NCBI RefSeq assembly: GCF_963668215.2
Contig: NZ_CAXXDI010000001.1
Location: 1,418,844 to 1,482,843, forward strand
Reading direction: 5' to 3'
DNA: 64,000 nucleotides
Source of the DNA: an uncultured Desulfosarcina sp.
GTDB lineage: Bacteria > Desulfobacterota > Desulfobacteria > Desulfobacterales > Desulfosarcinaceae
The stretch's first letter is position 1. Each line of letters begins with the position of its first letter. Positions 18,675 through 63,361 of the stretch are shown here, in pieces. Both the position numbers and the translations under genes were made by a program. The notes beneath the pieces were generated by a model. The model was not told the origin of the DNA and did no database searches. It worked only from the letters and a program-made list of their open reading frames with translations.

Positions 18675-18768
18675 GTATAGAGATTGTTTTTGGCAAGGCC
18701 AGAGGGAGGAAGCTGTATGCGGTTATACCGCGACGACCGATAACGCCGTCCAAAAATAATCTCTTTAC
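18675..18768. repeat. Intergenic palindromic MITE/REP-like element (copy 1)
   Basis: GTATAGAGATTGTTTTTGG ... CCAAAAATAATCTCTTTAC inverted ends; internal CAAGGC, GTAT-N6-ATAC, TAACGC. Confidence 0.65.
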
Positions 18769-18790
18769 GTTGAATCGAAAGGAAGATCCT

Positions 18791-19636
18791 ATGGTTTTCG
18801 GCTACAGCACCAACGCCTTCGTTAAATTCTCGCTGCTGGATTCATTCGACCGCATCGCCCGGCTGGGTTTTAAAGGCGTCGAGATCATGTGCGACCAGCC
18901 CCATCTTTATCCCCCCGAGTATGACGAAGAGAAATTGAAAACGGTAAAAACCAGTCTTGAGAAGAACGGGTTGAAACCGACCAACCTGAACAGCTTCACC
19001 CTATTTGCCGTGGGCGACACCTATCTTCCCTCCTGGATCGAACCGGAGGAAGACCGCCGGAAAATCCGCGTGGACCACACCCTGGCCTGCCTGGATATCG
19101 CCGCCGTTATTGGATGCGGCAACATATCGATTCCGCCGGGCGGCCCCCTGCCCGCCGGCATGACCCGCCAGGAAGCCCTGCGCCTGTTTCACCAGGGCAT
19201 GGATCAGGTCATTCCCAGGGCCGAGGAACTGGGCGTCCGTCTGCTTGTCGAGCCCGAGCCGGACCTGCTCATGGAGCGCACCTCGGAAATCAAACCCTTC
19301 GTGGCCGACATCCAGTCAGCCATCGTCGGCGTCAATTTCGACATCGGCCATTTTTTCTGCGCCGGCGAAGATCCGGCGGCAGCCTTCGAAGAACTCTTCC
19401 CCTGGGTGGGCCACATACACATCGAGGACATCGCCCCCACCCGTGAGCACAATCACCTTATCGCCGGCTTGGGCGCCATCGATTTTCCATCGGTTTTCGC
19501 CGCCATGAAACGTCTGGAGTACAGCCATGACATGAGTCTGGAGCTTTACCCCTACACCGACCGTCCCGAGGAAGCCGGCCGGGAAAGCCTGGCGCACCTT
19601 CTGCCCATGATGCAGGCGGCGGGATTGACATCCTAG
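18791..19636 (+). CDS. Sugar-phosphate isomerase/epimerase (AP-endonuclease-2 TIM barrel)
   Basis: GFKGVEI, LLVEPEP, VNFDIGH, HIHIED, SLELY metal-ligand motifs. Confidence 0.9.
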   Translation: MVFGYSTNAFVKFSLLDSFDRIARLGFKGVEIMCDQPHLYPPEYDEEKLKTVKTSLEKNGLKPTNLNSFTLFAVGDTYLPSWIEPEEDRRKIRVDHTLACLDIAAVIGCGNISIPPGGPLPAGMTRQEALRLFHQGMDQVIPRAEELGVRLLVEPEPDLLMERTSEIKPFVADIQSAIVGVNFDIGHFFCAGEDPAAAFEELFPWVGHIHIEDIAPTREHNHLIAGLGAIDFPSVFAAMKRLEYSHDMSLELYPYTDRPEEAGRESLAHLLPMMQAAGLTS

Positions 19637-19640
19637 CCGG

Positions 19641-21656
19641 TCAGCCAAGCACCTCCCGCAACCGTTTGGACAACTCGACAATCGTAAAGGGCTTTTGAAT
19701 AAAGGCACGACAGCCCCGGGCCATAATTTCCTCGGCCTGGCCATCAATGCTGTAGCCGCTGGCCAGCAACACCGCGACATGGGGGTTAATAGCCTTCAAT
19801 CGATCAAAGACCTCGTCGCCGCCCATCTGCGGCATGATGATATCCAGAATCACCAGGTCGATCCGATCCGCGTTTTGGGCATAAATGTCCAGGGCGGATT
19901 CTCCCGAACTGGCAGTGAGGACTGTATAACCGATCTTGTTGAGCAGTTTTTCGCCCACTTCCAGCACCATGGATTCGTCGTCAACCAGCAGCACGGTTCC
20001 ATGCCCCGAGACCGGCAGTTCGTATCGTCTGGATTCTTCGCGGGCGCTTTTCCGCGAAACGGGAAGATAAAAGAAAAATGTGCTTCCGCGGCCCGGTTCG
20101 CTGTCAACATCGATGGCGCCGTGATGGTTCTTGACGATGCCGAAGGCGGATGCCAATCCGAGCCCGCTGCCCTGGCCGACTTTTTTGGTTGTGAAAAAAG
20201 GATCGAAAATCTTTTTGCGGACCTCCGGGTCGATTCCCGTGCCCGTATCCGTTACGGCAACCCGGACGTACCTGCCCGGCTGGATGCCATAAGCGGCGGC
20301 AACGTCCTCTGCAAGGTGAACGTTGTGTGCGCCGATAGTCAAACGCCCACCCTTGGGCATCGCATGCGATGCGTTGATGCATAGGTTGAGCAGCACCTGA
20401 TCGATTTGCCCGCGATCTACTTCAACGGACCACAAGCCCTTTTCCACGGCCAGTTCGATCTGAATCTCCTTTTTTGTGCGCCCGAACATTTCGGCGCTGT
20501 TGACGATCAGATCCTTCAGGTCGGTCGGTTTGGCTTCGTATTTACCGCCCCTGGCCAGCCCCAGCAGCTGACGGGTCAGACCGACGCCCCGCTGGACGTA
20601 GGTTTCGATGTTTTTCAGATGTTTGTGGTCCTTCGCACCCGGATCGTTTTCCATCAGAGCCAGGGAGGCATTGCCCTGGATGCCCATGAGGAGGTTGTTG
20701 AAATCGTGGGCGATGCCACCTGCCAGGGTTCCCAGGGATTCCAGTTTCTGGGTCTGTTGAAGCGTGGCTTCCAGCTGCTTTTTCGCCTCCTCGGCCTCCC
20801 GCAGGGCCGTCACATCATGGACCACGGCCATGGCCCGTTTGGGAAGGTCGCCTTCGAAAAAGAATCGAGCATGGACCAGGACACGGATGATTCGACCGTC
20901 CTTGCATTGGAACGAAAATTCGGCGGGAGCTGGGCGGCGGTCACCTGCCAATACTTCCTCGATCATTCGGTCAAAGGCGCTTTTATTCTCATCGGTCAAA
21001 AGGATGTTGGGATCGAGGGACAAAAATTCCTCTTCGCTGTAGCCGGTATACTTGCACATGACTTCGTTAACGCTGGTAAAACCCCGCGTTTCGATGTCGA
21101 ACTCGCAGATGCCGGCGGGCGCATGATGAACCAGTTCCCTGTTCTTGGCTTCGCTTTCCCGCAAGGCGTTTTCAGCCCGTTTGCGTTCGGTCAGGTCATG
21201 GGTGAGGCCGTAAAAACCGAGCACCGTACCATCCTCTTCCACATAAGGAACATAATTGGCCTCCAGCCAGATGGTCCCTTGGCCCTTTTCGGGCAGCATC
21301 ACCTCGAAACGGACATGGTTTCCAGCCAGTACTTCTCCAACCTGTTTTTCTATTTTGCCGTAATGGTCCTCTCCCAGGACGTCACGCATATGACGGCCGA
21401 CAATGGCGTCTCGGCCAAGACCCAAAACACGCTCGTACTCGCGGTTTACGAACTGAAACCGCCGGTCGGCATCGACGTAGGAAATACGGGCCGGCAGGTT
21501 GTCGGTCAAAAGGCGCAACCGCCGTTCATTTTCTCGCAGGGCGGACAGCTGGGCCTGGAGCTGGGGGTAGTAGCTTTTGCGGGTGGATTGCAGGCTCAGC
21601 CCCAAAAATTTTTCACGGGCATGATTGGCTTTGGCGGATGGGTCAGATTTCGACAT
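19641..21656 (-). CDS. ErcS/NahK-like cytoplasmic PAS hybrid histidine kinase
   Basis: N-terminal LGLSLQSTRKSYYPQL motif resembling ErcS-family kinases, two PAS domains, GGIAHDFNNLL, C-terminal receiver. Confidence 0.88.
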   Translation of the reverse strand: MSKSDPSAKANHAREKFLGLSLQSTRKSYYPQLQAQLSALRENERRLRLLTDNLPARISYVDADRRFQFVNREYERVLGLGRDAIVGRHMRDVLGEDHYGKIEKQVGEVLAGNHVRFEVMLPEKGQGTIWLEANYVPYVEEDGTVLGFYGLTHDLTERKRAENALRESEAKNRELVHHAPAGICEFDIETRGFTSVNEVMCKYTGYSEEEFLSLDPNILLTDENKSAFDRMIEEVLAGDRRPAPAEFSFQCKDGRIIRVLVHARFFFEGDLPKRAMAVVHDVTALREAEEAKKQLEATLQQTQKLESLGTLAGGIAHDFNNLLMGIQGNASLALMENDPGAKDHKHLKNIETYVQRGVGLTRQLLGLARGGKYEAKPTDLKDLIVNSAEMFGRTKKEIQIELAVEKGLWSVEVDRGQIDQVLLNLCINASHAMPKGGRLTIGAHNVHLAEDVAAAYGIQPGRYVRVAVTDTGTGIDPEVRKKIFDPFFTTKKVGQGSGLGLASAFGIVKNHHGAIDVDSEPGRGSTFFFYLPVSRKSAREESRRYELPVSGHGTVLLVDDESMVLEVGEKLLNKIGYTVLTASSGESALDIYAQNADRIDLVILDIIMPQMGGDEVFDRLKAINPHVAVLLASGYSIDGQAEEIMARGCRAFIQKPFTIVELSKRLREVLG

Positions 21657-21713
21657 GATGGCTTGATCCGACTGCTGAAAATTTCGGTTTTGTTTTGAGG
21701 GCTCCGTTTGGGC

Positions 21714-22880
21714 TTAATAAATTTCCTGAAAAATCGAGGCAATCTCATCAGATTGGGCCTGGCGCGGATTGGTTGCCAGGCAGGGGTCCTGAAATGCAAA
21801 CTCGGCCAGTTGGGGCAGTTCTGTCAAAGCCACACCCATATCCCGCAGCCGCTGCGTGATCCCCAAGCTGCTCCGCAAAGAAGCAATCCGGTCCACGAGC
21901 GCCGCGGCGGTCTCCCCGGGTTCCTGCCCGTTTGTTCTCAATCCCATATCTCCGGCAAGCTGAATGTATTTATCGGATGCGGCTGGAAAATTGAAGCGCA
22001 CCACTTTTTCCAATAAAAGAGAATTGCATTCTCCATGGTTTAAATCTTTGGCCCCACCCAGACTGTGGGCCATGGCATGGACCAGCCCAAGGCTGGCATT
22101 GGAAAAGGCCAGACCGGCCATGAGGCTGGCCATCATCATGTTCTCCCTGAAAGTCATGTTGGCCGGTTCCCGGTAGGCTCCTTCCAGATTGTCGGCGACC
22201 AGCCGGACAGCCTGCCTGGCGGCCATATCGGTCAACGGGGAAGCGGCCGTAGATACATAGGCCTCGAAAGCGTGGCACAGGGCGTCCATGCCGGTGGCGG
22301 CCGTCAGATCCGACGGCACGGTCAATGTCGTTTCGGGATCGACCAGAGCGATATCGGGGATCACCATTTTGCTGATGATCGCAATTTTGCCTCCCCGTTC
22401 CGTGTCGGTGATGATGGCGAACTGGGAAACATCGGCCGATGACCCCGCTGTCGTGGGAATGAAGATCAGGGGCGGACCCGGACTGGGGACGGCATCCACA
22501 CCTTCGAAATCGACCACATCACCCGGATTGCCCACCACGACGCCGATCCCCTTGGCGCAGTCCATGGGGCTGCCGCCACCCACGGCCAGAATCAGGTCGC
22601 AGCCCTGGCGGCGGCAGATTTCCGCGCCCGCCATGACCTCATGATCCTTGGGGTTGGGAGAAACCGCACTGAAAACCCGGTAAGCGATGCCGGCATCTTC
22701 CAGGCTGGCTTCCACCTTTTCCATCCACCCGGCGGCAATCACCCCCGGATCGGTAACGATCAATACCTTTGACGCACCGAAATTCGCAACATGACGGCCG
22801 GCCAGCATTAACGCACCGGGGCCGTACACGATTTCCGGCACCAGGAATTTTCTCAAGCACAAGAGTGTAGACGGATCCAT
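21714..22880 (-). CDS. Iron-containing alcohol dehydrogenase-like protein (ErcA-like)
   Basis: LRKFLVPEIVYGPG N-terminus, GGGSPMD, IPTTAGSSAD, DALCHAFE, GLVHAMAHSLGG, HGECN; directly upstream of the ErcS-like kinase. Confidence 0.9.
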   Translation of the reverse strand: MDPSTLLCLRKFLVPEIVYGPGALMLAGRHVANFGASKVLIVTDPGVIAAGWMEKVEASLEDAGIAYRVFSAVSPNPKDHEVMAGAEICRRQGCDLILAVGGGSPMDCAKGIGVVVGNPGDVVDFEGVDAVPSPGPPLIFIPTTAGSSADVSQFAIITDTERGGKIAIISKMVIPDIALVDPETTLTVPSDLTAATGMDALCHAFEAYVSTAASPLTDMAARQAVRLVADNLEGAYREPANMTFRENMMMASLMAGLAFSNASLGLVHAMAHSLGGAKDLNHGECNSLLLEKVVRFNFPAASDKYIQLAGDMGLRTNGQEPGETAAALVDRIASLRSSLGITQRLRDMGVALTELPQLAEFAFQDPCLATNPRQAQSDEIASIFQEIY

Positions 22881-22982
22881 GCAATCAGCTCCCGGATCGA
22901 ACGTTTCGATTTTCAAACGGCTGTCAACCAGATCCAAAAGACGTTGTGGTTAGGATATCATATAAATTTATTTAAGCTCAAT

Positions 22983-22997
22983 AAATGATTATCATTT
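22983..22997. promoter_or_regulatory. Fur-box-like 7-1-7 inverted repeat
   Basis: AAATGAT-T-ATCATTT perfect 7-1-7 palindrome matching the core of the Fur consensus GATAATGATAATCATTATC; lies in the divergent intergenic region. Confidence 0.55.
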
Positions 22998-23227
22998 GCC
23001 AAACACCTGCCGACTTTCATGTCGACCAAAATTTGATCCCTTGACAGTCGGGAAAGAATACTAATTATTTTTTAATTCGGGCATCTACCGCATAACGGGC
23101 AGACAATCAGGCAAGCAAGATCGATCCCGGAAGGAATAACTCGCATCGATGCCTGTTTGGCAAATGACAACTCCGCCCCGCGTCGGATGGCGGAAATAAG
23201 AATCGGGTCTTTTAAGAAAGGAAATCA

Positions 23228-24928
23228 ATGGCTCAGGATATACTCATCGTCGGCGGTGTGGCTCTTGGATCAAAGGCGGCCTGCCGCTTCAAACGTCTCG
23301 AACCCGGCTCCCGCGTCACGATCATCGATCAGGATCGCTTTGTATCCTACGGCGGGTGCGGCATTCCCTTCTACGTTTCCGGCGATGTCAACGATGTCAA
23401 CGATCTGCGCAAAACCAGCTTCCACATGCTGCGCGACGAAGCTTTTTTCAAGAATTGCAAGGATATCGAAGTACTCACCCGAACCCGTGTCGAGCGCATC
23501 GACCGGGAAAACCGGCAGATCCACATCCTTCGGGAGGATGGATCCACCGATGCCTTACCCTACGACCAGCTTGTTCTGGGAACGGGCAGCAGCCCCCGGC
23601 GCCTGCCCATCCCCGGCGCGGATCTTCCCATGGTGCACACGGCATCCAACCTCAACGATGCCCAGGCCATCAAGGAACTGATGACCAACGGCAAAGTCGA
23701 GCGCGCGGTCGTCATCGGCGGGGGATTCATCGGCCTGGAAATGGCCGAGGCTCTGGCCGACATGTGGGAAGTGGAAACCACCATTGTCGAGTATACCAGC
23801 CAGATCATGCCGGGCTTCGTAAGCTCCATGTTCGCCCGTATGGCCCAGCACGAGATGGAAAAAAACGGGGTCCGCTTCTACCTTGGCGAGCAGGTCCAGG
23901 CCATTGAGGGAACCGATTCCGTAAAAGCCGTAGTGACGGACAAACGCCGGCTGGAGGCCGATCTGGTTGTCATGGCCGTCGGGGTCACCCCCAATGTGGA
24001 GCTGGCCCGGGACGCCGGCCTGACCATCGGACCCACCGGCGCCATTGCGGTGGACGAGCATCTGCGAACGTCCGACCCCACCATCTATGCCGGCGGCGAC
24101 TGCGCCGAGGTCCGCAACCTGGTGACCGGCCAGCCTGGCTATTTCCCCTTGGGCTCCATGGCCAACCGTCAAGGCCGGGTGATCGGCACCAACCTGGCCG
24201 GCGGCAACGCCCTGTTCAAGGGGGCTGTGGGCGCCTTTGCGGTGAAAACCTTCGATGCCGCCCTGGCCGGCGCCGGACTGAGCATCGAGAGCGCGCGCAA
24301 GGCCGGTTACGACGCCGTCAGCGTTCAGGCCGCCCAACTCGACCGGGCCCACTTTTATCCGAAAAAATCCATGCTGCACCTGGAATTGGTCGTGGATCGC
24401 CAATCCCGGCGCATCCTCGGTGTTCAGGGATTCGGCAAGGACGGCGATGCCGTGGTCGGCCGGATCAACGCGGTGGCCGCCATACTGGAGGACCACCCCA
24501 CCATCGATCGGCTCAGCAACGTGGAGCTGGCCTATTCACCTCCCTTCTCGTCGGCCATGGATGCCCTCAACAGCCTGGCCAATGCGGCCGAGAACATGCT
24601 GGATGGACGCTTCCAGCCCATCGACGCCGAGGGGTTCGCCCAAAAATGGTCCCAGGGCAACGGCAACCTCATGATTCTCGACTGCCGCGCCCGACAGGAT
24701 GGCGAGGCCTTTGCCGAAAAATACCCCGAGCGCTGGATCAACATTCCCCAGGACGAACTTCGGCGGCGTTTCGGGGAAGTTCCCCGGGATAAGGATCTGA
24801 TCCTGCTTTGCAACACCGGGGTGCGCTCCTACGAAGCCCAATTGAACCTCAGGGAGATGGGAATGAAAGACCCGGTCAGCGTCCAGGGTGGAATCGTGAC
24901 CTTGAAGGAATGCGGGCTGGATTTGTAA
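23228..24928 (+). CDS. FAD-dependent pyridine nucleotide-disulfide oxidoreductase with C-terminal rhodanese (CoA-disulfide/persulfide reductase-like)
   Basis: VGGVALG FAD motif, SYGGCGIP single active Cys, GGGFIGLE, IYAGGD, LAYSPPFS, rhodanese LLCNTGVRS. Confidence 0.92.
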   Translation: MAQDILIVGGVALGSKAACRFKRLEPGSRVTIIDQDRFVSYGGCGIPFYVSGDVNDVNDLRKTSFHMLRDEAFFKNCKDIEVLTRTRVERIDRENRQIHILREDGSTDALPYDQLVLGTGSSPRRLPIPGADLPMVHTASNLNDAQAIKELMTNGKVERAVVIGGGFIGLEMAEALADMWEVETTIVEYTSQIMPGFVSSMFARMAQHEMEKNGVRFYLGEQVQAIEGTDSVKAVVTDKRRLEADLVVMAVGVTPNVELARDAGLTIGPTGAIAVDEHLRTSDPTIYAGGDCAEVRNLVTGQPGYFPLGSMANRQGRVIGTNLAGGNALFKGAVGAFAVKTFDAALAGAGLSIESARKAGYDAVSVQAAQLDRAHFYPKKSMLHLELVVDRQSRRILGVQGFGKDGDAVVGRINAVAAILEDHPTIDRLSNVELAYSPPFSSAMDALNSLANAAENMLDGRFQPIDAEGFAQKWSQGNGNLMILDCRARQDGEAFAEKYPERWINIPQDELRRRFGEVPRDKDLILLCNTGVRSYEAQLNLREMGMKDPVSVQGGIVTLKECGLDL

Positions 24929-24963
24929 AGCGGCCTTGAAGACGCCCCTCCCTCAATAAACAA

Positions 24964-25017
24964 AAGGGCCCGGGTTTCAACGCCTCCGAATACTACCGGG
25001 GCTGGAACCGGGCCCTT
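24964..25017. terminator. Hairpin between convergent genes (likely bidirectional terminator)
   Basis: AAGGGCCCGG / CCGGGCCCTT stem, flanked by an A-run and a T-rich run. Confidence 0.6.
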
Positions 25018-25080
25018 CTTGTTCTGAAATGCAATTTCTACTGCTGCGCCCGATTCCGCTGGAAGACCGCCATCCGTTTT

Positions 25081-25938
25081 TTACGGCCTCCAGGCATCCT
25101 GCGGATAGCGCACCCCCCATTTATCGTAGATCGCCTTCAGTTCTCCGGATACAGCCAATTCCAGAATGCGCCGATCGAAGATGCGTATCAGCCGGTCGGA
25201 TTTTTCAGTGGGGGCGAACGCCACATAGGCATTTTCGCCCCAAAGGATCTCCAGCCGGTAGGGCTTCATGTCCATGGACTGCTCCGCGATGTAAAATTCG
25301 ATATCGATCAACGCGTCGATGTAAACGTCATAGTGTTCGCTTTTTAGCAGCAGCCATGCCCGAGCATAATCGTCCACTTCCGTCCAGCGTGAAAAATGGA
25401 CAGGCTTGAGATGGGCGAAGGTATGGTAGTCGTAGCCCCGAAGCCAAACGGCGCTTTTACCATCCAGGCTTTTCAACCCGTCCCAGGATGAAATCCGATC
25501 CTTTTTGAAAACCACGGCGGTATATTCCACAAAAAGCGGCCAGCGGGGGATGCGCTGCCCCTCTTCTTGGGCGTGTTCGCGCCATACGCAAAGCATGGCG
25601 TCTGCTTGTTTGTCGCTGACCATCAGCTGGGCCCGTTTCCAGGGAACGAAATTGAATTTCATTTCAATTCCCTCGGGAGAATACACCCGTTTCACAATCT
25701 CGAAAAAAAGTCCGCTGCCGTCGGCGTTGGTCTGCCCGTCCCACTGCGGTGTAGCGATATCGATGAAATCGGCCCCGGCAACATCTCCCGCCAAGACGGC
25801 ACCGGTGGCCGGCAGCCACAGGAAAAGGGTCAGAAAGAAAAGGATCGGAAGCGAATGCCGTGCGCGCAGGTGGGCCGCGGCAGTGAAATTCGCGCGAGGT
25901 GACGGGTTTCGGCTGGCCAAACGTGTAAGTGTTTGCAT
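25081..25938 (-). CDS. Periplasmic solute-binding protein, family 3 (polar amino-acid type)
   Basis: Signal-like hydrophobic stretch, GLFFEIVKRVY, VPWKRAQ, WLRGYDY, GELKAIYDKW. Confidence 0.85.
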   Translation of the reverse strand: MQTLTRLASRNPSPRANFTAAAHLRARHSLPILFFLTLFLWLPATGAVLAGDVAGADFIDIATPQWDGQTNADGSGLFFEIVKRVYSPEGIEMKFNFVPWKRAQLMVSDKQADAMLCVWREHAQEEGQRIPRWPLFVEYTAVVFKKDRISSWDGLKSLDGKSAVWLRGYDYHTFAHLKPVHFSRWTEVDDYARAWLLLKSEHYDVYIDALIDIEFYIAEQSMDMKPYRLEILWGENAYVAFAPTEKSDRLIRIFDRRILELAVSGELKAIYDKWGVRYPQDAWRP

Positions 25939-27136: not shown

Positions 27137-27159
27137 CATCATTGGGGCAAGGCTGTTTT

Positions 27160-28023: not shown

Positions 28024-28077
28024 CGTCGATCCACCAGAAATATCCGGCCGGCGACAGAAACGATTCCAACGGCAGCA

Positions 28078-30220: not shown

Positions 30221-31708
<1,488 letters not shown>

Positions 31709-31765
31709 TCAATTTTTAAAAAGAAGTAAGACGGGTGGTTTCGATTGTCAAGCTGGACGACGGTG

Positions 31766-31891
31766 TTAACCCCAGCGTTGCAAAAGCCGGAGGGAGCCAG
31801 AGCCAAGGCGCCAAGGGTGAAGCCGTAGTGGTCTACTGCAATCCCTTGGCAACGCCGGATCTGGTTTCCTCCGGCTTTCCCGCCAGGGTAA
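31766..31891. repeat. Intergenic palindromic MITE/REP-like element (copy 2)
   Basis: Long nested hairpin (CCCCAGCG/CGCCAGGG; AAAGCCGGAGG/CCTCCGGCTTT; CCAAGGG/CCCTTGG) with CAAGGCG, GTAG-TGGT-CTAC and GCAACGC. Confidence 0.7.
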
Positions 31892-32037
31892 AAAAAGAGA
31901 AAATTATCGTTACCCCTGGAATACACACATGGTGCATACCAGAGCGCAGGCAAAAATAATGAATTATATATATCATTTCAAATAGTAACGAAAATTTTCG
32001 CATTTTTTATGCAACGATGGGGTTAATCCATCAACGT

Positions 32038-49206: not shown

Positions 49207-49215
49207 TTATATACC

Positions 49216-49476
49216 ATGAATTTTGAATTTGACCCGAAAAAATCAGACAGCAATAAAAAAAAACACGGGATTGATTTTATTGCGGCCCAAGCGCTTTGGG
49301 ACGATATTGATTTATTAGAGATTCCAGCCAGAACAACTGATGAAGCGAGATTTCTGGTACTTGGCAAAATAGGCGAGAAACACTGGGCTGGGATTATTAC
49401 CTATCGCAATGGCAACATACGCATTATCTCAGTACGGCGTGCCAGGAATGAGGAAATTGAGATTTATGAAAGCTAA
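49216..49476 (+). CDS. brnT: BrnT-family toxin
   Basis: FEFDPKKSDSNKKKHGIDF..AQALW..E.RFLVLG..RIISVRRAR..E.EIYE. Confidence 0.9.
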   Translation: MNFEFDPKKSDSNKKKHGIDFIAAQALWDDIDLLEIPARTTDEARFLVLGKIGEKHWAGIITYRNGNIRIISVRRARNEEIEIYES

Positions 49477-49696
49477 AGACCTAGATAAAAAATTCGATGA
49501 GGGGAAAAGCATTATAGAACATCTTGACCTCTCCAAAGTAAGACGGCCGAACCAGGAGCAAAAAAGGGTTAATGTCGATTTCCCTCTATGGATGATTCAA
49601 TCGTTGGACAAAGAAGCAAAGCGTCTTGGTGTTCCACGGCAGTCGATTATTAAAATTTGGCTTGCTGAACGATTGAATAAATCCGCTGCCGGTTAG
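49466..49696 (+). CDS. CopG/RHH antitoxin (BrnA-like)
   Basis: Overlaps the toxin 3' end; MKAKDLDKKFDEG..KRVNVDFP.WMI.SLD.EA.RLGV.RQSIIK.WL. Confidence 0.88.
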   Translation: MKAKDLDKKFDEGKSIIEHLDLSKVRRPNQEQKRVNVDFPLWMIQSLDKEAKRLGVPRQSIIKIWLAERLNKSAAG

Positions 49697-49855
49697 GGTT
49701 CGCGCAAAAATAAATTCGCAGAATTGGGTGTTGAGTCGCCCGTCTGACAAGGCGCGAGAACGTAAGGCATATTTGGAATATTCCGACGTTTTCGCAACGC
49801 CGTCGGGCGGGATGAATCGACGACGAAAATGTGAATTTATTTTTGCGCGAGCCCT
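49695..49855. repeat. Intergenic palindromic MITE/REP-like element (copy 3)
   Basis: 26-bp imperfect TIR AGGGTTCGCGCAAAAATAAATTCGCA / TGTGAATTTATTTTTGCGCGAGCCCT; internal CAAGGCG, ATATT-TGG-AATAT, GCAACGC. Confidence 0.75.
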
Positions 49856-49881
49856 TAGTGGCCGAACCTGCCGTTTCGCAT

Positions 49882-51776
49882 CATACTTTCGACACCCCTT
49901 TTCCTTGAAACGAACTGAATTTATTTCCCAATGAGCCTGGAACGTTATAGGCTTTAACGTATTGATATTACGTTAAATGTTTATGCCTAGACTTTGTTAA
50001 TAATATCTGATAGTTATGCCCTCACGTGTTCAATATGAGCTTAGGGAGGGCAAAATGGAGAATCTGGTTCCCGATAATCTGACATTTTCAGAAGTCGGCC
50101 ATCTGCCGATCATCAAAGACTTCGCCAAAAAGATTGAGCTGGTCGAGACACTGGACACCCTGGTTGACAGCGAAATGGAACTCTCACCGGGAGTCGCTAT
50201 TCTGGCCATGGTGTTGGACACACTTTCGGGAAGAACCCCTTTGTACCGGATGGAAGAATTCTTTCAGGAGAAGGACACTGAATTGATGTTGGGTTGCGAT
50301 GTCAAACCGGAACTTTTCTGTGACTACAATATTGGCCGTGTGCTGGACAAGATCTTCGACACCGGCACACAAAAGGTGTTCTCGCAGATCGCTCAAAATG
50401 CCATTGGCGTGTTTGACGTCGATCCCCGTCGTTTACATTTCGATACCACCTCCATCAGTGTTTTCGGAGATTATGACTTTGTCGATCCACCACTTAAAAT
50501 CACCTATGGTCACAGCAAGGACAAGCGTCCGGATCTGAAGCAGTTTATCGTTTCAATGCTGTGCGTGGATCGGAACATCCCCATCTTGGGGACCACCGAA
50601 GACGGCAACGCTTCGGATAAAACGTTGAACAACGAACTTTTAGGAGGCGTCTCAAAGCACATGGCCCGGCACGGGCTTAAACCGGGAGCCTTCGTATACG
50701 TAGCGGACTCGGCTTTTGTCACGCCGGACAATCTCGAAAAATCGAGAGATAAAAACGTAAAATTCCTGACCCGGCTGCCAGCCACCTACAAGGAGTGTAG
50801 CCGTGCCATCTCCGAGGCCGTTATCGCCGAGAATTGGATTGATTTTGGCGAACTCAATCAGACACCGGCTACGAAAAAACGCCCTGCTGCGATTTACCGT
50901 GGATTTGAAACCACCGTAGAGCTCTATGGTGAAACCTACCGCGCCATCGTTGTGCACTCTTCCGCTCATGACAAACGTCGCCATAAGCGTATTGATCGAT
51001 TGCTTGAGCAAAAACGCAAAGATCTGGAAACCCACGGCAAAAAGATTAACGCAGGTCCCTTTTATTGCCGGGCCGATGCCGAGGCTGCAGCAGAAAAGAT
51101 CGGTAAAGCCACCCCAAACAGCTATCACAGACTACGGTATGAAATCAGGGAAAAGGCCAAATATCGCCGGGGAAGACCCGCCAAAGGAAAACCACGTACG
51201 CCCATCGGTTACGAATATCTTCTTGATGTCAAGATTGAAAAGGATACGGATGCAATCACTCCCTTGCGTCTTGAGGCCGGATGCTTTGTTTTATTAACCA
51301 ACCTGTCCGGGACCAAGGAGCAGGTCCAATGGCCCGCCGTTACTCTTTTGGAGTTGTATAAGAACCAGAGCGGTATCGAACAAAACTTCGGATTTTTGAA
51401 AGACCCGGTAATCGTCAACTCCATCTTTTTGAAAAAGCCGAAACGTATCGAAGTGCTTGGTTTGATCCTTGTAATCGCACTTCTGATTTGGCGCTTGATG
51501 GAGCGCTGTATGCGTCAACATCTGGAAAGAACGAAAAGCGAAATCAGCGGCTGGAAAAATCGCCCGACCAAGCGACCGACCTCTTTCATGATGACGACGA
51601 AATTCTTAAGCATACTGGTAGCGAAATCAGGAAAACGAAGACAACTGGTCAGGCCGTTAAAGCCTGTTCAGCTGGAATTTCTACAGGCTATGGGAGTTGA
51701 CCCGGAAGTCTTTATCAAACCGTAAAGGCAAAAATTAATTGCACGTAAAACTATTAACAGGGGTGTCGAAAGTACG
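49882..51776 (+). mobile_element. Complete IS1634-family insertion sequence
   Basis: 18-bp TIRs CATACTTTCGACACCCCT / AGGGGTGTCGAAAGTACG (1 mismatch); 6-bp direct repeat TCGCAT at 49876-49881 and 51777-51782. Confidence 0.92.
50055..51725 (+). CDS. IS1634-family DDE transposase
   Basis: LHFDTTS, YGHSKDKRPDLKQF, GNASD, YVADSA, Y..QSGIEQNFGFLK. Confidence 0.95.
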   Translation: MENLVPDNLTFSEVGHLPIIKDFAKKIELVETLDTLVDSEMELSPGVAILAMVLDTLSGRTPLYRMEEFFQEKDTELMLGCDVKPELFCDYNIGRVLDKIFDTGTQKVFSQIAQNAIGVFDVDPRRLHFDTTSISVFGDYDFVDPPLKITYGHSKDKRPDLKQFIVSMLCVDRNIPILGTTEDGNASDKTLNNELLGGVSKHMARHGLKPGAFVYVADSAFVTPDNLEKSRDKNVKFLTRLPATYKECSRAISEAVIAENWIDFGELNQTPATKKRPAAIYRGFETTVELYGETYRAIVVHSSAHDKRRHKRIDRLLEQKRKDLETHGKKINAGPFYCRADAEAAAEKIGKATPNSYHRLRYEIREKAKYRRGRPAKGKPRTPIGYEYLLDVKIEKDTDAITPLRLEAGCFVLLTNLSGTKEQVQWPAVTLLELYKNQSGIEQNFGFLKDPVIVNSIFLKKPKRIEVLGLILVIALLIWRLMERCMRQHLERTKSEISGWKNRPTKRPTSFMMTTKFLSILVAKSGKRRQLVRPLKPVQLEFLQAMGVDPEVFIKP

Positions 51777-52561: not shown

Positions 52562-52576
52562 GAAAGCCTCATGGTC

Positions 52577-56876: not shown

Positions 56877-57939
56877 CACCGGCTTTCTCGACTCCCTTTT
56901 GGGCATCCTCAACGCGATGTCGGCCAATCTTAAGGCGGGTCTTGCGCGGCTGGACGGACTGTGGCGGTTTTTTTCGGCCCTGGACCCCTGGTTTTCACTA
57001 GCCCTGTTCCTAGCCTGCTCCATGCTCATGGTCTACCGCCTCAACGTATTGGAGCGCAAGGGCCTCGAAGGCACCGTGCTGGGCACGCTGGTCATGCCCT
57101 ACGCCTCCGGGTTTCCCAATCTGGTGTTTGCCTATTCCCTGGGCCGCCAGGGCGGCAGCGGTGCAGTCATCGTCGAAAACTGCATCGTCAACAATGTCAC
57201 CAACCTGACCCTGCTCATCGGTTTGCCGGCCCTGATCTGGGGTCTGAACGTCCTGCCCAACCGGTCTGTACGCAATGTGCGCCCTTCCGCGTCCAAACTC
57301 CAGCAGCTCAACACCCTGTCCTTGATGCTCACCCTCGTGGCCCTGTTCTTTTTCACCGGCGCCTTGTGGGCATTGGGACGCGACGGCCGCCTGGATTTCG
57401 GCGACGGTCTGGTGCTGGTGGGCCTTTTTCTCTTCTGGCAGGTCCTGCACGTATTCGACGTTCTCAAATACAACATCCACCAGCGGCGCTCGCTGCCGTG
57501 GACCGTTTTCGTGGACGTCCTGCTGGTGGTCATTCTGGGGGCCGGCGTGCTTTCCGGAATCGACCGCCTGGTGGCCTGGGTCATGGCCCTGGGTCCCGGC
57601 TTTATTCTCTACGATCAGTTGGGCATTCTCAGCGGCTGCCTCATGGTGCTGCCCAACGCGGTTCTGGCGATGTACTATGCCTGGGCCCGGCGGGCGGACA
57701 TCGTTTACAGCTCCCAGGTGGGAGACGGTCATATCTGCATCCCCATGTGCATCGGCCTTTTTGCCCTATTTTCCGTCATCCAGGTGCCGGACCGGATGGT
57801 TCTGGGCATCCTGGTGATTCTCGGGGCCGGACTGCTGCATCTCTTTTTCGTCGCCATCGTCGGCCGGCTTCCCCGCTTCATGGGGGCATTGCTGACCATT
57901 GCCTATGGGGTGTTCCTTTACACCGGATTCATGGGATAA
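56869..57939 (+). CDS. CaCA-superfamily (Na+/Ca2+ antiporter-like) membrane protein
   Basis: About 10 TM segments; alpha-repeat-like GTLVMPYASGFPN and CLMVLPN..DIVYSSQVGD. Confidence 0.75.
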   Translation: MNDTGFLDSLLGILNAMSANLKAGLARLDGLWRFFSALDPWFSLALFLACSMLMVYRLNVLERKGLEGTVLGTLVMPYASGFPNLVFAYSLGRQGGSGAVIVENCIVNNVTNLTLLIGLPALIWGLNVLPNRSVRNVRPSASKLQQLNTLSLMLTLVALFFFTGALWALGRDGRLDFGDGLVLVGLFLFWQVLHVFDVLKYNIHQRRSLPWTVFVDVLLVVILGAGVLSGIDRLVAWVMALGPGFILYDQLGILSGCLMVLPNAVLAMYYAWARRADIVYSSQVGDGHICIPMCIGLFALFSVIQVPDRMVLGILVILGAGLLHLFFVAIVGRLPRFMGALLTIAYGVFLYTGFMG

Positions 57940-57978
57940 CGATTTCGCAGAAAGTCCGATATCTGCGCTGCAATTCCA

Positions 57979-59181
57979 ATGAAAAACAACCATACCCGAT
58001 TCATCATTCTATGGATTGCCCTGACCGCTGTTCTGCTCCTTTGCGCCTGCCAGGACGCTGCCAGGGATCAGTTGACGGCCGATCTGCAAACCGGCATTAC
58101 CGATGACGAAATTCTGATCGGCTCATCACTGGCCCTGGGAGGGCACGCCGGATATCTGGGCACCCAGACCCTGCACGGAGCCATGGCTTATCTGCGGCAC
58201 ATCAATACCGCCGGCGGCGTCAACGGCCGCCGCATCCGGGTCGTGGCCTACGACGACGGCTATGATCCGCCCCACTGCCTGGTGAACACCCAGCGCCTGC
58301 TCATCGAAGACCGCGTCTTTGCCCTTTTTTGCTACGTGGGCACGCCCACCACCGTCAGGGTGCTTCCCCTGATCGAAGAAGCCCGCATCCCCCTGGTCGG
58401 GATGTTCACCGGCGCGAATGCCCTGCGGGAACCGTTAAATCCCTATTTGATCAATGTCCGGGCGTCTTACTACCAGGAAACCGCCGCCGCCGTCCGCTAC
58501 CTGGTCAAACGCCTGAACATCAGTGAGATCGCCGTTTTCTACCAGTACGACGCCTATGGATTCGACGGATTGCGGGGTACCGAACTGGCATTGAAGGCCT
58601 TCGGTCTGGTGCCGGTGGCCAATGGCAGTTATGTCCGGGGCACCCTGGATGTGGAAGCCGGCCTGGACCGTATCCGCGCCAGCGGTGCGCGTTCCGTGGT
58701 AATGATCGGCACCTACGAACCCTGCGCCAAGTTTATCCGCATGGCCAGGCAAGACGGCTATGATCCGGTGTTTTACAATGTCTCTTTCGTGGGCGCGGAT
58801 GCACTGGCCCGCCTGCTGGGCGAAAACGGAGAAGGCGTAATTGTCTCTCAGGTGGTGCCGCCTCCCGAAACCATCGGGGAGGACAAACCACTTTGGGGGG
58901 CCGAAGAATACGTCAAGCTTCTGGCGGCCTATTATCCGGAAGACCGCCCCAATTTTGTCGGCCTCGAGGGGTATATCAACGCCCGCGTGCTGGTGGAAGG
59001 GCTGAGGCGGGCCGGCCGGCAATTGGACCGTGAATCCTTTGTCCGGGCCATCGAGTCCATTCGGGACTACGATCTGGGCATCGCCAATCCGCTTTCCTTC
59101 AGTTCCCTGGACCATCAGGGCCTGGAGCGGGTTTATTTTACGAAGATAGAGGGCGGTCGGTTCGTCCTGCTGGAAGACTGA
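57979..59181 (+). CDS. Type-1 periplasmic binding lipoprotein (branched-chain amino-acid-like)
   Basis: Lipobox LCAC; DDGYDPP, YVGTPT, NVRASY..E, LEGYI. Confidence 0.88.
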   Translation: MKNNHTRFIILWIALTAVLLLCACQDAARDQLTADLQTGITDDEILIGSSLALGGHAGYLGTQTLHGAMAYLRHINTAGGVNGRRIRVVAYDDGYDPPHCLVNTQRLLIEDRVFALFCYVGTPTTVRVLPLIEEARIPLVGMFTGANALREPLNPYLINVRASYYQETAAAVRYLVKRLNISEIAVFYQYDAYGFDGLRGTELALKAFGLVPVANGSYVRGTLDVEAGLDRIRASGARSVVMIGTYEPCAKFIRMARQDGYDPVFYNVSFVGADALARLLGENGEGVIVSQVVPPPETIGEDKPLWGAEEYVKLLAAYYPEDRPNFVGLEGYINARVLVEGLRRAGRQLDRESFVRAIESIRDYDLGIANPLSFSSLDHQGLERVYFTKIEGGRFVLLED

Positions 59182-59268
59182 GGGTTTCGTTCATAGACCC
59201 GGCATTGACCGGTTTGAACATCGTTGATCAAAACACCGGAAAAGAGCGAGCCCCTCACCTGGAGCCCT

Positions 59269-61107
59269 ATGCCACTGGAAAAGATAAAACGCTCCTCTTT
59301 GAAGAACAAAATCTTCTTCTCCATCACATTGGTGATTCTTCTCATCAGCGTGTTGATCGCCCTTTTTACCCGATGGGTGCTTATCTCCAGCCTGACATCC
59401 GAACTCAAACGGCGGGGGTTGGGAATCGGCCAGAGCATCGCCGAGAGTTGTCGGGGGCCTATTCTGACGGAAGATATTCCACAGCTCACCAGCCTCCTGT
59501 TCGACGCCCGCCTGGGCGAACGCAAGCTTCTCATCGTCTATGTCTACATACAGGACAAAAAGGACCGCGTGCTGGCCCACACCTTCACCCATCCTTTTCC
59601 CCAGGGCCTGACCGATGCCAACCCCCTGCCGCCCGATCGGCCCAACGCCATCCGTTTGCTGAAGATGACGGGCAGCTCCGTTTATGATGTCGCCATCCCG
59701 GTGCTGGAGGGAATCTACCGGATCGGAACCGTTCATCTGGGGGTGGATAAAAACCATATCGATCAGTTGATCGGAAAACTGCGCACCACATTTTTGGGGT
59801 TTGTTTCCACGGTAACCATCATCTTTTTCGTCATCAGCCACGGCCTGGCGCGCTATATCACCCGCCCGATTTCGCAGCTTACCCGGGTTTCCGATGAAAT
59901 CAGCCGGGGGAATTTCAATTTTTCCGTTCCCTTGGAAGATCGCATGGGCGGCGAAGACGAGGTCCGCCAGCTGGCCAGTTCCTTCATGAACATGGCCCAG
60001 CGGATCAAAGAGTCCCAGGTTCGCCTTCAGGAGTCCGAGGCCAAATACCGGTCCCTGTTCAACAGCGGCCCAAACCCCATTTTCGCTCTGGATCAGGACC
60101 GGCACCGTATTCTGGATGCCAACCCCAGGGCCGAAGCCGTGTTCGGCTACGCCCGGGAAGAACTTATCGGACGGCCCTTTTCGGACTTGGGCCCCATTGA
60201 CGATTCGGGCCGGCAGCGCATCGGCGGTAAAAACGAAGAAGTGGCCATCTCCAAGGTACAATATACGAAAAAGGGCGGCAGCCCCATCCACGTCAACGTG
60301 CATGCCATCCCGGCCCGCTATGGCTCCGTTGATGCCCTGATTGTGGCCACCACGGACATCAGCGAAATGGTGGAAAAGGACAGCCAACTGATTCAGGCCA
60401 GCAAAATGACCACCCTGGGGGAGATGTCCGCCGGCATCGCCCACGAAGTCAACCAACCCCTCAACGCCATAAAAATGGGCAGCGAATTTCTGGAATTCAT
60501 GGTCCAGTCCGGAAAGGAGATCCCCAAAGCGGACCTGTTGCACGTGGTGGCGGAAATCAGCGGACAGGTGGATCGTGCCGTGGCCATCATTCAGCGGCTG
60601 CGGGATTTCGGACGCAAATCGGATTTCAGCAAGAACCAGGTGCAGATTAACGACTGTGTGCGGAGCGTTCTGGAGATCATCGGCCGGCAGTTGACCCTGC
60701 AGAACATTCGCCTGGACCTTGAGCTTGCAGACGGAATCGCTCCGGTAATGGCCCACAACAATCGCTTGGAGCAGGTGATTTTCAACCTGCTCACCAACGC
60801 GCGCGATGCCATCGTTCAGCGGCAGGAAAACGGCGACGACGACCTCGATCATTGCATCCGCATCGCCAGTAAACAGGACAACAGGCACGTTCGCCTGACC
60901 GTATCCGACACCGGAGTGGGCATTTCGGAAACGGTCAAGGATCGGATCTTCGAAGCTTTTTTTACCACCAAGCAGATGGGCGAAGGCATGGGGCTGGGGC
61001 TGTCCATCACCAATGAGATCGTCGAGGATTACGGCGGCACCATCCGGATCGGCAGCGGCATCCATGGCGGCACCGCCTTCGTTCTCACTTTTCCGGCCGC
61101 CGGATAA
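59269..61107 (+). CDS. Membrane HAMP-PAS sensor histidine kinase
   Basis: Two TM segments, [26 protein letters not shown]; GGAG RBS. Confidence 0.92.
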
Positions 61108-61137
61108 AAACATAGGATAAAAACGAAAGGAGACGAC

Positions 61138-61455
61138 ATGTATCTTCCCCAGGTCTACCAGAAATTCCAGGAACGGTTCCCTGAAGTCTTCAACCATTTC
61201 AAACAGCTCGGCAAGGCAACCCGGGAGGCGGGGCCCCTGGACGAGAAAACCCAGGACCTGATCAAATTGGGCATCGCTGCGGGGGCAAACTCGCGTGGGG
61301 GCGTGATGTCGAATACCCGCAAGGCCATGGCTGCCGGCGCAACGGTTGAAGAGGTAGAACATGCCATTCTTCTGGCAATGACCACAACCGGCTTTCCCAA
61401 CACGATTGCGGCTTTGAGTTGGGTGCAGGAGGTGCTGGCGGAAACGAAAGGCTGA
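61138..61455 (+). CDS. Carboxymuconolactone-decarboxylase/AhpD-like family protein
   Basis: GPLDEKT..LIKLGIA..A..AGATVEEV.HAIL..GFP. Confidence 0.88.
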   Translation: MYLPQVYQKFQERFPEVFNHFKQLGKATREAGPLDEKTQDLIKLGIAAGANSRGGVMSNTRKAMAAGATVEEVEHAILLAMTTTGFPNTIAALSWVQEVLAETKG

Positions 61456-61529
61456 TTGAACCAATAAAAAAATGGCGTGATTGGTTTGACGACAGTTTGC
61501 ATGAAATAGAAAACAGCAAAAATTTTTAG

Positions 61530-61598
61530 CCCTCACCACGGCATAAACTCGGACCGGGGCCAAACTGCGTCCCCGTCCGGTTATGCCGAACGTTATAC
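61530..61598 (+). other. attC-like site 1
   Basis: CCCTCAC (R'' with AAC>CAC)-5-CATAAACT ... GGTTATG-6-GTTATAC; inner CGGAC..GGGG/CCCC..GTCCG stem with extra-helical bases. Confidence 0.75.
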
Positions 61599-61622
61599 AT
61601 CAGCAAATAAGGTGGAAATTCG

Positions 61623-62504
61623 ATGAAAAGTCATAACCAGATGCCGAAATACCATGAACTTATGAACCCACTTCTCGCAGCCCTTCATGAGTTAGGCGGT
61701 TCTGGTTCTATTGAAGAGATCGCACAAAAAGTTTCGGAATTATCTGAATTGCCCGAAGAGGTTTTGAATATACCGCATAATCCGGAAAAAAGTAGTCAAA
61801 CGGAGATCGAATATCGTTTAGCATGGGCTCGCACTTATTTAAAAAAATATGGCATATTGGAAAATTCAGATAGGGGTATTTGGCTAATTGTTCCAGAAAA
61901 ACGTGATGTGAAATCGGTTGATTCTCAAGTCGTTGTAAAAACAGTACGAGACGAACACAAAAAACAGAAAGAAGCTGTCGAAAAAGAAAAAGCATCTGAA
62001 GAAGACACAGATACAGATATTGAAATTCCAGATGAGGCTGAGTCCTGGCGCAGCAGCCTCCATCATGTCCTCATACATGAAATATCACCAGATGCTTTTG
62101 AAAGATTGGCAAAAAGGATTTTAAGAGAGTCTGGTTTTGTACAGGTTGAAGTAACCGGTCGTTCTGGCGATGGCGGCATCGACGGTAAAGGCATAATGCG
62201 ATTAAGTGGCTTGCTAAGTTTTCACGTAATTTTTCAGTGCAAAAAATATAAAGGTACTGTCACCGCTTCAGATATCCGTGATTTCAGGGGCGCAATGATA
62301 GGACGGGCTGACAAGGGGCTGTTTATTACAACAGGCACTTTTACTCGAGATGCCATCCGAGAGGCTACAAGAGACGGTGCGCCACCAATCGACCTCGTTG
62401 ATGGAGACCAACTCGCTGACAAGCTGAAGGAATTGGGCCTTGGAATAAAGAAGGAAATGGTTGAAAAAATTTCAGTTGATACTGAGTGGTTCAAATCAAT
62501 ATAG
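61623..62504 (+). CDS. mrr: Mrr-family (type IV, modification-dependent) restriction endonuclease
   Basis: Mrr_N region (PKYHELMNPLL..RLAWARTYLKK) and catalytic region (FERL..SGDGGIDG..QCKKY); AT-rich. Confidence 0.92.
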   Translation: MKSHNQMPKYHELMNPLLAALHELGGSGSIEEIAQKVSELSELPEEVLNIPHNPEKSSQTEIEYRLAWARTYLKKYGILENSDRGIWLIVPEKRDVKSVDSQVVVKTVRDEHKKQKEAVEKEKASEEDTDTDIEIPDEAESWRSSLHHVLIHEISPDAFERLAKRILRESGFVQVEVTGRSGDGGIDGKGIMRLSGLLSFHVIFQCKKYKGTVTASDIRDFRGAMIGRADKGLFITTGTFTRDAIREATRDGAPPIDLVDGDQLADKLKELGLGIKKEMVEKISVDTEWFKSI

Positions 62505-62505
62505 A

Positions 62506-62578
62506 ATTCAACAAGCAAATTAACTCGGATGCAAATTCCGCTGCGCTCCATTTGTACCGGTTAGTTGCAGCGTGGGAC
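62506..62578 (+). other. attC-like site 2
   Basis: 1 nt after the mrr stop: ATTCAAC-5-AATTAACT ... GGTTAGT-6-GTGGGAC (GTT core altered). Confidence 0.75.
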
Positions 62579-62590
62579 AAAAATGAAGGG

Positions 62591-62845
62591 TCAGTAGTGA
62601 TATCTCAGTTGGGCAATGAGAATCGCATCTTCTGAAACTTTATAAACGAATCGATGTTCGTCATTTATCCGCCTGGACCAGTATCCGGATAGGGCATGTT
62701 TCAATGGTTCAGGTTTGCCAACACCCTCAAAAGGGCTGCGTTTTGTTTCTTTAATGAGGGTGTTGATACGGCGAAGGATTTTTTTTACCGTTTTTTGCCA
62801 ATAGAGGTAATCGTCCCAGGCATGATCTGAGAAGATGAGCCTCAC
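62591..62845 (-). CDS. yoeB: Txe/YoeB toxin
   Basis: AWDDYLYWQ, GKPEPLK..LSGYWSRRINDEHR.VY, C-terminal RYHY. Confidence 0.95.
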   Translation of the reverse strand: MRLIFSDHAWDDYLYWQKTVKKILRRINTLIKETKRSPFEGVGKPEPLKHALSGYWSRRINDEHRFVYKVSEDAILIAQLRYHY

Positions 62846-63093
62846 TCTATAAGTTCCTTTTCATTTCCTTTGCCATTTTCGAGCTGGGCGACCGATTCGA
62901 TCAGACGTCTGGTGTTTTTTGGTGACCGCAACAGGTAGGCTGTCTCTTCAAGGGCTTCAAAGTCCTCAAGGGACATAATGACCACCGATTCCGACGATTT
63001 TCGTGTCACAATTATCGGGGCGCGGTCTCTGCAAACTTTTTCCATTGTTTTCGCAAGGTTTTGCCTTGCAGCGGTATAGGTTATGGCTTCCAT
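62842..63093 (-). CDS. yefM: YefM (Phd) antitoxin
   Basis: MEAITYTAARQNLA..PIIVTR..VIMSLEDF..LEETAYLLRSP.N..RL; GGAGG RBS; overlaps yoeB. Confidence 0.95.
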   Translation of the reverse strand: MEAITYTAARQNLAKTMEKVCRDRAPIIVTRKSSESVVIMSLEDFEALEETAYLLRSPKNTRRLIESVAQLENGKGNEKELIE

Positions 63094-63105
63094 GTCGTTA
63101 CCTCC

Positions 63106-63143
63106 TGTACAGTATGTTGTACAAGTACGTGGTTTTTTGTCAA
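63106..63143 (-). promoter_or_regulatory. yefM-yoeB promoter and operator
   Basis: TTGACA at 63143-63138; two TGTACA palindromes (63106-63111 and 63118-63123) 12 bp apart, as in the E. coli yefM operator. Confidence 0.8.
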
Positions 63144-63154
63144 CGTTTATCTTG

Positions 63155-63240
63155 CCCCAACCTGTCATTTCGCCAGAAATCCAGGGCCGGGTGGCGTGCC
63201 AGGGTCACAGCCTTGGCTTCTGCTGAACTCCACGTTGGGG
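63155..63240 (+). other. attC-like site 3
   Basis: CCCCAAC ... TGCTGAACTCCAC-GTTGGGG; ends extend to an 11-bp perfect inverted repeat CTTGCCCCAAC/GTTGGGGCAAG; L boxes imperfect. Confidence 0.65.
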
Positions 63241-63252
63241 CAAGCGCTCAAG

Positions 63253-63361
63253 GTAAGCGTTCACAGGGTACCGCATCTGCTTTGTTCCCGGGCACTTGAA
63301 GTATGACCAATACGTCGGCGTGCCCGGCGCCTCACATCTGCGGCACCCTGTAAACGCTTAC
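63253..63361. repeat. Intergenic palindromic MITE/REP-like element (copy 4)
   Basis: GTAAGCGTT.ACAGGGT..CCGCA / TGCGG.ACCCTGT.AACGCTTAC; inner CCGGGCAC/GTGCCCGG; minus strand GAGGCG and GTAT-TGGTC-ATAC. Confidence 0.75.

Follow-up and report, generated by a model that had tools for sequence, protein, structure and literature searches.

Intergenic palindromic elements of Desulfosarcina combine different transposon ends with a common strand-specific hairpin core

Four palindromic elements in a Desulfosarcina genome

We analysed a 64,000-nucleotide stretch of DNA (hereafter the window) from an uncultured Desulfosarcina sp. (contig NZ_CAXXDI010000001.1, positions 1,418,844 to 1,482,843), in which a preliminary description had singled out four intergenic palindromes, here named E1 to E4; further families found in the course of the analysis are designated I-IV, VI, D and T5. 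The genome under study (G000) consists of a 6.54-Mb chromosome and a 148-kb plasmid, ~6.7 Mb in total. Its congeners are coded by number (G013, G015, G016, G017, G019, G023 and G028), G015 being the closest relative, with 92% identity in the E1 flanks. All four palindromes proved to be genuine elements. Each folds as a single long hairpin, with minimum free energies of -40, -73, -93 and -70 kcal/mol for E1 to E4, respectively, on the strand reading CAAGGC..AACGCC, and each has paralogues as examined by blastn against the whole genome (~15 for E1, ~5 for E2, ~5 for E3 and ~14 for E4). Their extents were revised to the coordinates given for each element below. As had been proposed, all four lie between called open reading frames (ORFs), and the same holds genome-wide for 114 of 120 elements. 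Note that the ORF calls are rough, being based on codon usage; around E4, in the final 2.4 kb of the window, several long ORFs escaped them.

Boundaries and ends of the elements

E2 is a 253-bp element at 31770-32022 (+), flanked by the 4-bp target-site duplication (TSD) TTAA (left copy 31766-31769, right copy 32023-32026) and bounded by terminal inverted repeats (TIRs), of which the left starts with CCCCAGCGTTGCAAAAG and the right ends with TTTATGCAACGATGGGG. The right end repeats the left end in inverted form, and the hairpin noticed at first is only the left part of E2 (31770-31891), with the core (CAAGGCG .. CAACGCC, GTAG/CTAC apical hairpin) at 31804-31856 (+). The duplications vary among copies and genomes (TTAA, TTTA, TACA and TAAA) and the family end sequence is CCCCAACGTTGCAAAAG; in distant genomes, E2-type ends were recognisable around stems that were different. 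A search of a plasmid database gave no match for E2 or E4. A SAM-I riboswitch (RF00162, 64.7 bits) lies 59 nt from E2, at 31612-31710 (-), upstream of a 468-codon ORF (30221-31627).

E3, a 159-bp fully palindromic element at 49696-49854 (+) with the ends GGGTTCGCGC .. GCGCGAGCCC, is flanked by the 3-bp TSD TTA (49693-49695 and 49855-49857) and carries its core (CAAGGCG .. CAACGCC, ATATT/AATAT apical hairpin) at 49748-49801 (+). Its ~5 copies are 78-81% identical, TAA/TTA flanks the family on both sides, and the family end sequence is GGGTTCGCGCAAAAAT. The site of E3 is empty in the congener G016, where a single TAG stands at the insertion point, one position off the duplicated TTA of the window. 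E3 fits the habit of IS5-type elements (TNA duplication). In addition, a 95-codon ORF at 49409-49696 (+) has a TAG stop (49694-49696) that overlaps the left TSD. To the right of E3, a 1.9-kb insertion sequence (IS) at 49880-51775 (+) encodes a 569-aa transposase (DUF4277 and DDE_Tnp_1) between the ends ATACTTTCGACACCC and GGGTGTCGAAAGTA; it has 8 full copies of at least 99% identity, and 3 of the 8 have a core-bearing element (E3, a T5 copy or a family-IV variant) either around them or no more than ~80 nt away.

E4 is a 159-bp element at 63253-63411 (-) with IS66-like ends (GTAAGCGTTCAC..), flanked by the 8-bp TSD CGCTCAAG (63245-63252 and 63412-63419). Its core lies at 63280-63333 (-) with a GTAT/ATAC apical hairpin and runs from GAGGCG to a diverged 3' core word, GAACAAAG (minus strand). 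The end repeat occurs three times, on the left, internally in inverted orientation and on the right, and the internal copy forms the hairpin first described; the family end sequence is GTAAGCGTTCACAGGG. Ten copies share 94-99% identity and four are older. When the alignment was read by eye, matching 8-bp direct repeats of unrelated sequence flanked ~8 of the 10 young copies, and at least three young copies were found in the T-run of a terminator-like hairpin. An 8-bp TSD, as seen in E4, is the rule for the IS66 family. The ends of E4 begin with GTAAGCG, as do the inverted repeats of IS66-family elements (PMC12888890). The IS66 copies of congeners end in GTAAGCGT, and only that tip is common with E4; the IS66 transposase (PF03050) is encoded in 20 of 30 congeners. 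To the left of E4, contig depth in the sequencing runs of the organism itself was 10x baseline at window positions ~62515-62575 and 62527-63528, and many contigs end at 62515 and 62573, indicating a further multi-copy repeat just left of the element.

The E1 hairpin occupies 18672-18771 (+), with the core (CAAGGCC .. AACGCC, GTAT/ATAC apical hairpin) at 18694-18747 (+), and its ~15 copies are 72-94% identical. At the orthologous site of G015, bases 18682-18765 (84 nt) are missing. We first read this site as an empty hairpin-loop target and then rejected that reading; the leftover bases match both E1 consensus ends, so that loss of the 84 nt from G015 is as likely as their gain in the genome under study. 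The same intergenic site holds an E1-type element in the more distant G019 and G023 and a degraded copy in G028, and G013 matches the whole E1 stretch including the element. E1 is an old element.

TSD length differs by family, being 3 bp in E3, 4 bp in E2, 6 bp in VI (TAACTA, TAGGTA; end sequence GTGTTCATCCAGAAAT) and 8 bp in E4. TIRs were defined for E2, E3, E4 and VI, and E1 is palindromic up to its ends. Fixed-length TSDs (4, 3 and 8 bp) together with TIRs in E2, E3 and E4 are the signature of DDE transposition, and these three are classical miniature inverted-repeat transposable elements (MITEs), with every mark of MITEs that we tested save a matched autonomous partner. The outer stems, which had been described as unrelated, are not arbitrary and represent family-specific transposon ends. 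Several kinds of DDE transposase would have mobilised the elements in trans, one of the IS66 type apparently serving E4. A scan of the genome for long pairs of family-IV or E3 ends (E2 ends were not scanned) found none. Two 1756-bp pairs of VI ends (G000 C2:79752-81507 and C1:3102328-3104083) were considered as the autonomous partner of family VI and rejected, since each proved to be a VI element whose core carries an IS701-like IS in its apical loop. This IS (1.6 kb, 465-aa DDE_5 transposase) is flanked by the 8-bp repeat TAGTTGAT or a variant; it may target the core hairpin, or the composite may have moved as a unit.

A hairpin core shared by the elements

We aligned the centres of E1-E4 with those of four paralogues (alignment A1). 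On its 5' side, the core consists of C-AA-GGC(G), an inner stem of 7-10 bp, a short internal loop, a 2-bp helix and a 1x1 pyrimidine mismatch; its apex is a GTA-N..N-TAC hairpin with a loop of 3-6 nt, after which the returning strands lead to (C)AA and (C)GCC. Across families, the core is 52-72 nt long and lies at the centre of the hairpin. The common layout proposed earlier was correct as to a shared core. The words then called bulges are half helix: (C)GCC is the pairing partner of GGC(G), which leaves only a 5' AA and a 3' (C)AA unpaired. Next to the core, where xAGATx faces xAGATx, a G.A or tandem G.A mismatch is kept across families, and two A-rich bulges likewise persist as fixed asymmetries.

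Some cores contain additional parts. An extra ~25-nt hairpin module (CCGAAGG..CCTTGGGG) stands beside the apical hairpin in cores of different families (G000 C1:1160627-1160793, 1594957-1595053 and 5055433-5055546), and in family IV, 5 of 26 copies have another module, of 29 nt, between GAGATC and AAGGC. Visual inspection of families IV and E1 suggested a K-turn-like arrangement (a 3-nt loop with tandem G.A); its non-canonical stem is irregular, and we treat it as a lead only. A hammerhead reading of the loops in the same two families, also made by eye, was discarded, as the topology does not fit.

Copy number, distribution and novelty

A pattern and fold screen, followed by blastn with 14 representative cores, identified 122 core-bearing elements in the genome, belonging to at least 14 families. 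Family IV has 42 copies and family VI has 13, both with a longer, 70-nt version of the core that families I-III have as well. The elements are 84-253 bp long, have no coding capacity and are scattered singly through the genome. The family-IV pattern also matches records of Desulfosarcina widdelii and D. cetonica, and contigs of public assemblies break at core-bearing elements.

As the preliminary description had proposed, a covariance model of the short core (R1; 8 seeds, 17 pairs) was built and searched, and it found further copies at every level: 39 matches in this genome, well over 1000 matches in 48 of 60 other genomes of the order (up to 82 candidates scored per genome) and, in a sample of 150 other genomes from across the phylum, matches in 12, of which some have at least 24-33 copies (up to 33 candidates scored per genome). 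Hundreds of R1 matches, in many genomes, had E values below 1e-10. The motifs common to the elements are short (CAAGGC, AACGCC), and it could be argued that unrelated hairpins or terminators had come to look alike by chance. A strict descriptor, however, matched the genome 99 times as against 38 times in the reversed sequence, and together with the paralogous families and the hundreds of strong model matches such copy numbers refute coincidence, to which we assign practically no likelihood. The core-bearing repeats are a large intergenic palindromic superfamily of Desulfosarcina and other Desulfobacterota, and the earlier suggestion of a multi-copy, non-autonomous element class of this phylum holds.

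It had also been suggested that the class may be poorly described, and our searches agree with this. With Rfam 15, at both gathering and relaxed thresholds, only the SAM riboswitch scored in the window, with no match to an element, and twenty element loci gave only weak noise from microRNA hairpins (E of at least 0.025). A literature search found no description of such elements. The large, repeat-rich genome of the related Desulfobacterium autotrophicum was reported with many repeats noted, such elements not being described (PMC2702500).

Covariation and strand specificity

Covariation in the core was examined in 39 model-aligned cores from 16 genomes. Changes on both sides occurred at 10 of the 17 core pairs, including all 7 inner-stem pairs; double-change cells numbered 104, compared with 40.2 +/- 5.1 in shuffles, none of 500 of which reached the observed value, and the covariation score was 0.370, as against at most 0.138 for slid partners. 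The outer arms behaved likewise, with double-change cells, observed and in shuffles, of 125 and 45 in family IV, 55 and 18 in E1, 80 and 26 in III, and 16 and 3 in VI (0 of 300 shuffles in each family); tests of this kind overstate significance for related repeat copies, and the pattern is plain in the alignments. The claim that stems vary as unpaired motifs stay fixed is therefore upheld by covariation in both core and outer arms.

The two strands are not equivalent. In 112 of 120 copies, folding was more stable for the CAAGGC..AACGCC strand than for its complement; the difference averaged 10.8 kcal/mol and was seen in all 14 families. This well-folding strand has 598 G.U pairs as against 31 A.C 1x1 mismatches. 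Mutational strand bias was considered as the source of the G.U excess and rejected, since the well-folding strand is mostly template and C-rich, the opposite of what a deamination bias predicts. The asymmetries persist, although neutral decay or arm-to-arm correction of quasi-palindromes would erase them, which argues for selection on a folded single strand; compensatory change in core and arms, with wobble pairs on one strand only, argues for the same. Such strand-specific pairing fits the single-stranded RNA or DNA structure suggested at the outset, and the strand under selection would be the CAAGGC..AACGCC strand.

Genomic context and the nature of the folded strand

The median distance from the stop codon of the upstream ORF to the core is 36 nt. 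Throughout the genome, many elements directly adjoin this stop codon or provide it themselves, and its distances from the core cluster in the range of 25-40 nt. Of 76 elements between co-directional genes, 56 have the well-folding strand antisense to those genes (p ~4e-5). The chromosome has two clean GC-skew replichores with switch points at 1.95 and 5.15 Mb, and relative to these the well-folding strand was on the C-rich strand in 80 elements and on the other in 40 (p ~3e-4). The bias was also seen between convergent or divergent genes (27:11), and the genes themselves are not co-oriented with replication (52%). Note that dnaA (G000 C1:6106518-6107000) is ~1 Mb from the nearer skew switch (5.15 Mb) and far from that at 1.95 Mb, so that the assignment of origin and terminus rests on the usual skew rule only.

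Folded single-stranded DNA (ssDNA), exposed in transposition or replication, and RNA are about equally likely as the form in which the hairpin is selected. The replichore bias and the antisense preference favour ssDNA, and the tolerance of G.U pairs, the tandem G.A motifs and the modular helices favour RNA. A rival reading is that the hairpin is a functional RNA of host or element that MITEs happen to have spread; it might act as a small RNA, a processing site, a terminator or a stabiliser of 3' ends. Covarying helices, fixed unpaired bases, optional hairpin insertions and the asymmetry between G.U and A.C are the usual marks of structured RNA, to which the tandem G.A motifs and the K-turn-like arrangement may be added; the position shortly after stop codons is suggestive, as is a layout of A-tract, stem and T-tract seen by eye in several other families. 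However, the well-folding strand is mostly antisense between co-directional genes, nothing resembling a promoter or terminator exceeded chance at the four window copies, and no Rfam family matched. We regard a functional RNA of this kind as rather unlikely.

The preliminary description had likened the elements to REPINs and attC sites. Elements of this type would be moved as folded ssDNA by a Y1/HUH transposase (RAYT, IS200/IS605) or an integrase. A strand-specific hairpin with fixed extrahelical bases and an orientation bias relative to the replichores would suit such a mechanism, and compensatory change occurs in REPIN hairpins as well (PMC3116915). The genome does contain three Y1_Tnp (IS200/RAYT-like) genes, of 351, 257 and 123 codons (L001-L003, at G000 C1:3587424, 2554300 and 1754072). 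None is linked to core elements, the best R1 score within ~1.5 kb on either side being 8 bits. Furthermore, E2, E3, E4 and VI have TIRs and TSDs of fixed length, the well-folding strand is mostly the expected leading-strand template, opposite to the IS608-type rule, and there are neither cassette arrays nor R''/R' boxes (intI itself was not searched). A REPIN-type or attC-type mechanism is thus highly improbable, and that part of the earlier proposal was abandoned. As a separate observation, locus L002 is bracketed by a 25-nt inverted repeat with only 3 occurrences in the genome.

Copies with and without the core

The occurrence of one core in elements with different ends might mean that the core is an independent, tiny mobile module that inserts into the centres of existing palindromes, so that the elements are nested like onions and their outer layers are unrelated. 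The core is always exactly at the centre of its hairpin, which in E2 and E4 is located at one end of the element; the shells around it have TSDs of 3, 4, 6 and 8 bp; and extra small hairpin modules are found at fixed junctions in some copies. Copies without a core also exist. Two core-less E4-type copies are present in this genome and two more in G017, a contig from sediment holds an E3-like element without the central 98 nt, and two mini-palindromes of 44-45 bp (G000 C1:1721363-1721407 and 4925578-4925621) consist only of family-VI ends around CAAATTTG. The last either arose by deletion or are shells that lacked a core from the outset.

The junctions are less favourable to such a module. A 7-bp repeat, GCAGATG, that flanks the cores of E4, D and T5 was taken as a candidate TSD of an inserted core and rejected, since CAGATG pairs with the CAGATG facing it, in a motif that includes tandem G.A; the CAAATTTG repeat in family VI was rejected as proof on the same ground. 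Both repeats are palindromic, and could equally be paired structure or substrates of deletion. E1, E2 and E3 have no direct repeat at the junction, a search of 30 congeners for shell-only E2 and E3 found nothing above control, and the xAGATx/xAGATx motifs that families have in common reach beyond the core, suggesting common descent over a longer stretch. An inserting module therefore seems doubtful to us. We prefer common descent with structure-preserving evolution to nested insertion of the core, because the junction repeats are palindromic and hence ambiguous, shell-only E2 and E3 are absent from the 30 congeners and the junction motifs are shared beyond the core.

An explanation for the elements and its difficulties

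On balance, we lean towards the reading that E1-E4 are copies of four different MITE families that have one asymmetric, strand-specific core in common, and that their hairpin is selected as a folded strand. Presence or absence at orthologous sites in relatives (the empty E3 site in G016 and the 84 nt of E1 missing in G015) had been proposed as a check and was observed. Most probably, it is the element that needs the hairpin, to spread or persist, and not the host.

Several points weigh against this reading, in addition to the caution about covariation tests given above. It does not explain how one core came to sit in at least four types of transposon end, and the four TSD lengths imply at least four transposase specificities. 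DDE transposition is not known to require a folded single strand. Neither an autonomous element with matching ends nor the IS66 transposase PF03050 was found in this genome, despite the 94-99% identity of the E4 copies. For E1, no TSD could be recognised, and shell-only copies are rare, with two E4-like copies and two VI minis in this genome. We also entertain, tentatively and with rather low confidence, the idea that the core, with its A-rich bulges about the GGC:GCC helix, its tandem G.A motifs and its GTA..TAC apex, belongs to a hitherto unrecognised class of strand-specific structured modules read by a dedicated protein, which would amount either to a new hairpin-dependent mobility working with several DDE ends or to a structured RNA spread by MITEs.

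Relation to known repeats

With bacterial MITEs such as Correia/NEMIS of Neisseria or IS-derived elements, those described here have in common that they are small, non-coding, multi-copy and intergenic, have TIRs and fixed TSDs, fold into long hairpins and vary in presence from one relative to another. In contrast to them, families with different ends and TSDs here share one asymmetric central hairpin, the arms covary and wobble pairs are confined to one strand.

The nearest analogues are REPINs, ERIC/BIME repeats and cyanobacterial SDRs. ERIC/IRU and BIME of enterobacteria are imperfect palindromes that cross genera, are modular, carry optional inserts at fixed sites and lie near gene ends, and in this they resemble our elements; sequence and taxon are different, and our elements have clear TSDs and TIRs. 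The small dispersed repeats (SDRs) of Nostoc, for which PMC3116915 cites Elhai et al. (2008), reportedly form sequence-dissimilar families that share a secondary structure with compensatory changes, nest in each other and in mini-transposons, and measure 21-27 nt. Unlike these cyanobacterial repeats, the present core is 52-72 nt long, has fixed bulges and belongs to Desulfobacterota. REPINs and REP sequences with RAYT (PMC3116915) are alike in being long-lived families of intergenic palindromes with compensatory changes and a likely single-strand reading. In REPINs, the two outer REPs are conserved and the centre is free, whereas here the centre is conserved, the arms differ, TSDs are present and no association with RAYT was seen. 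Integron attC sites likewise conserve structure over sequence and mark one strand by extrahelical bases; our elements differ from them in lacking the boxes (R'' RYYYAAC, R' GTTRRRY) and cassette arrays and in having TSDs and TIRs.

Significance

Desulfosarcina and its relatives are key cyclers of carbon and sulfur in marine sediments. A repeat superfamily that extends across their phylum now has exact boundaries, target duplications and a searchable structural core, which aids annotation and assembly. The results raise the question of why MITE families with unlike ends and transposition signatures keep one asymmetric, single-strand-specific hairpin. If mobility depends on it, hairpin-dependent or ssDNA-dependent transposition would reach beyond the HUH families; if the core is RNA, it would be an abundant mobile structured RNA.

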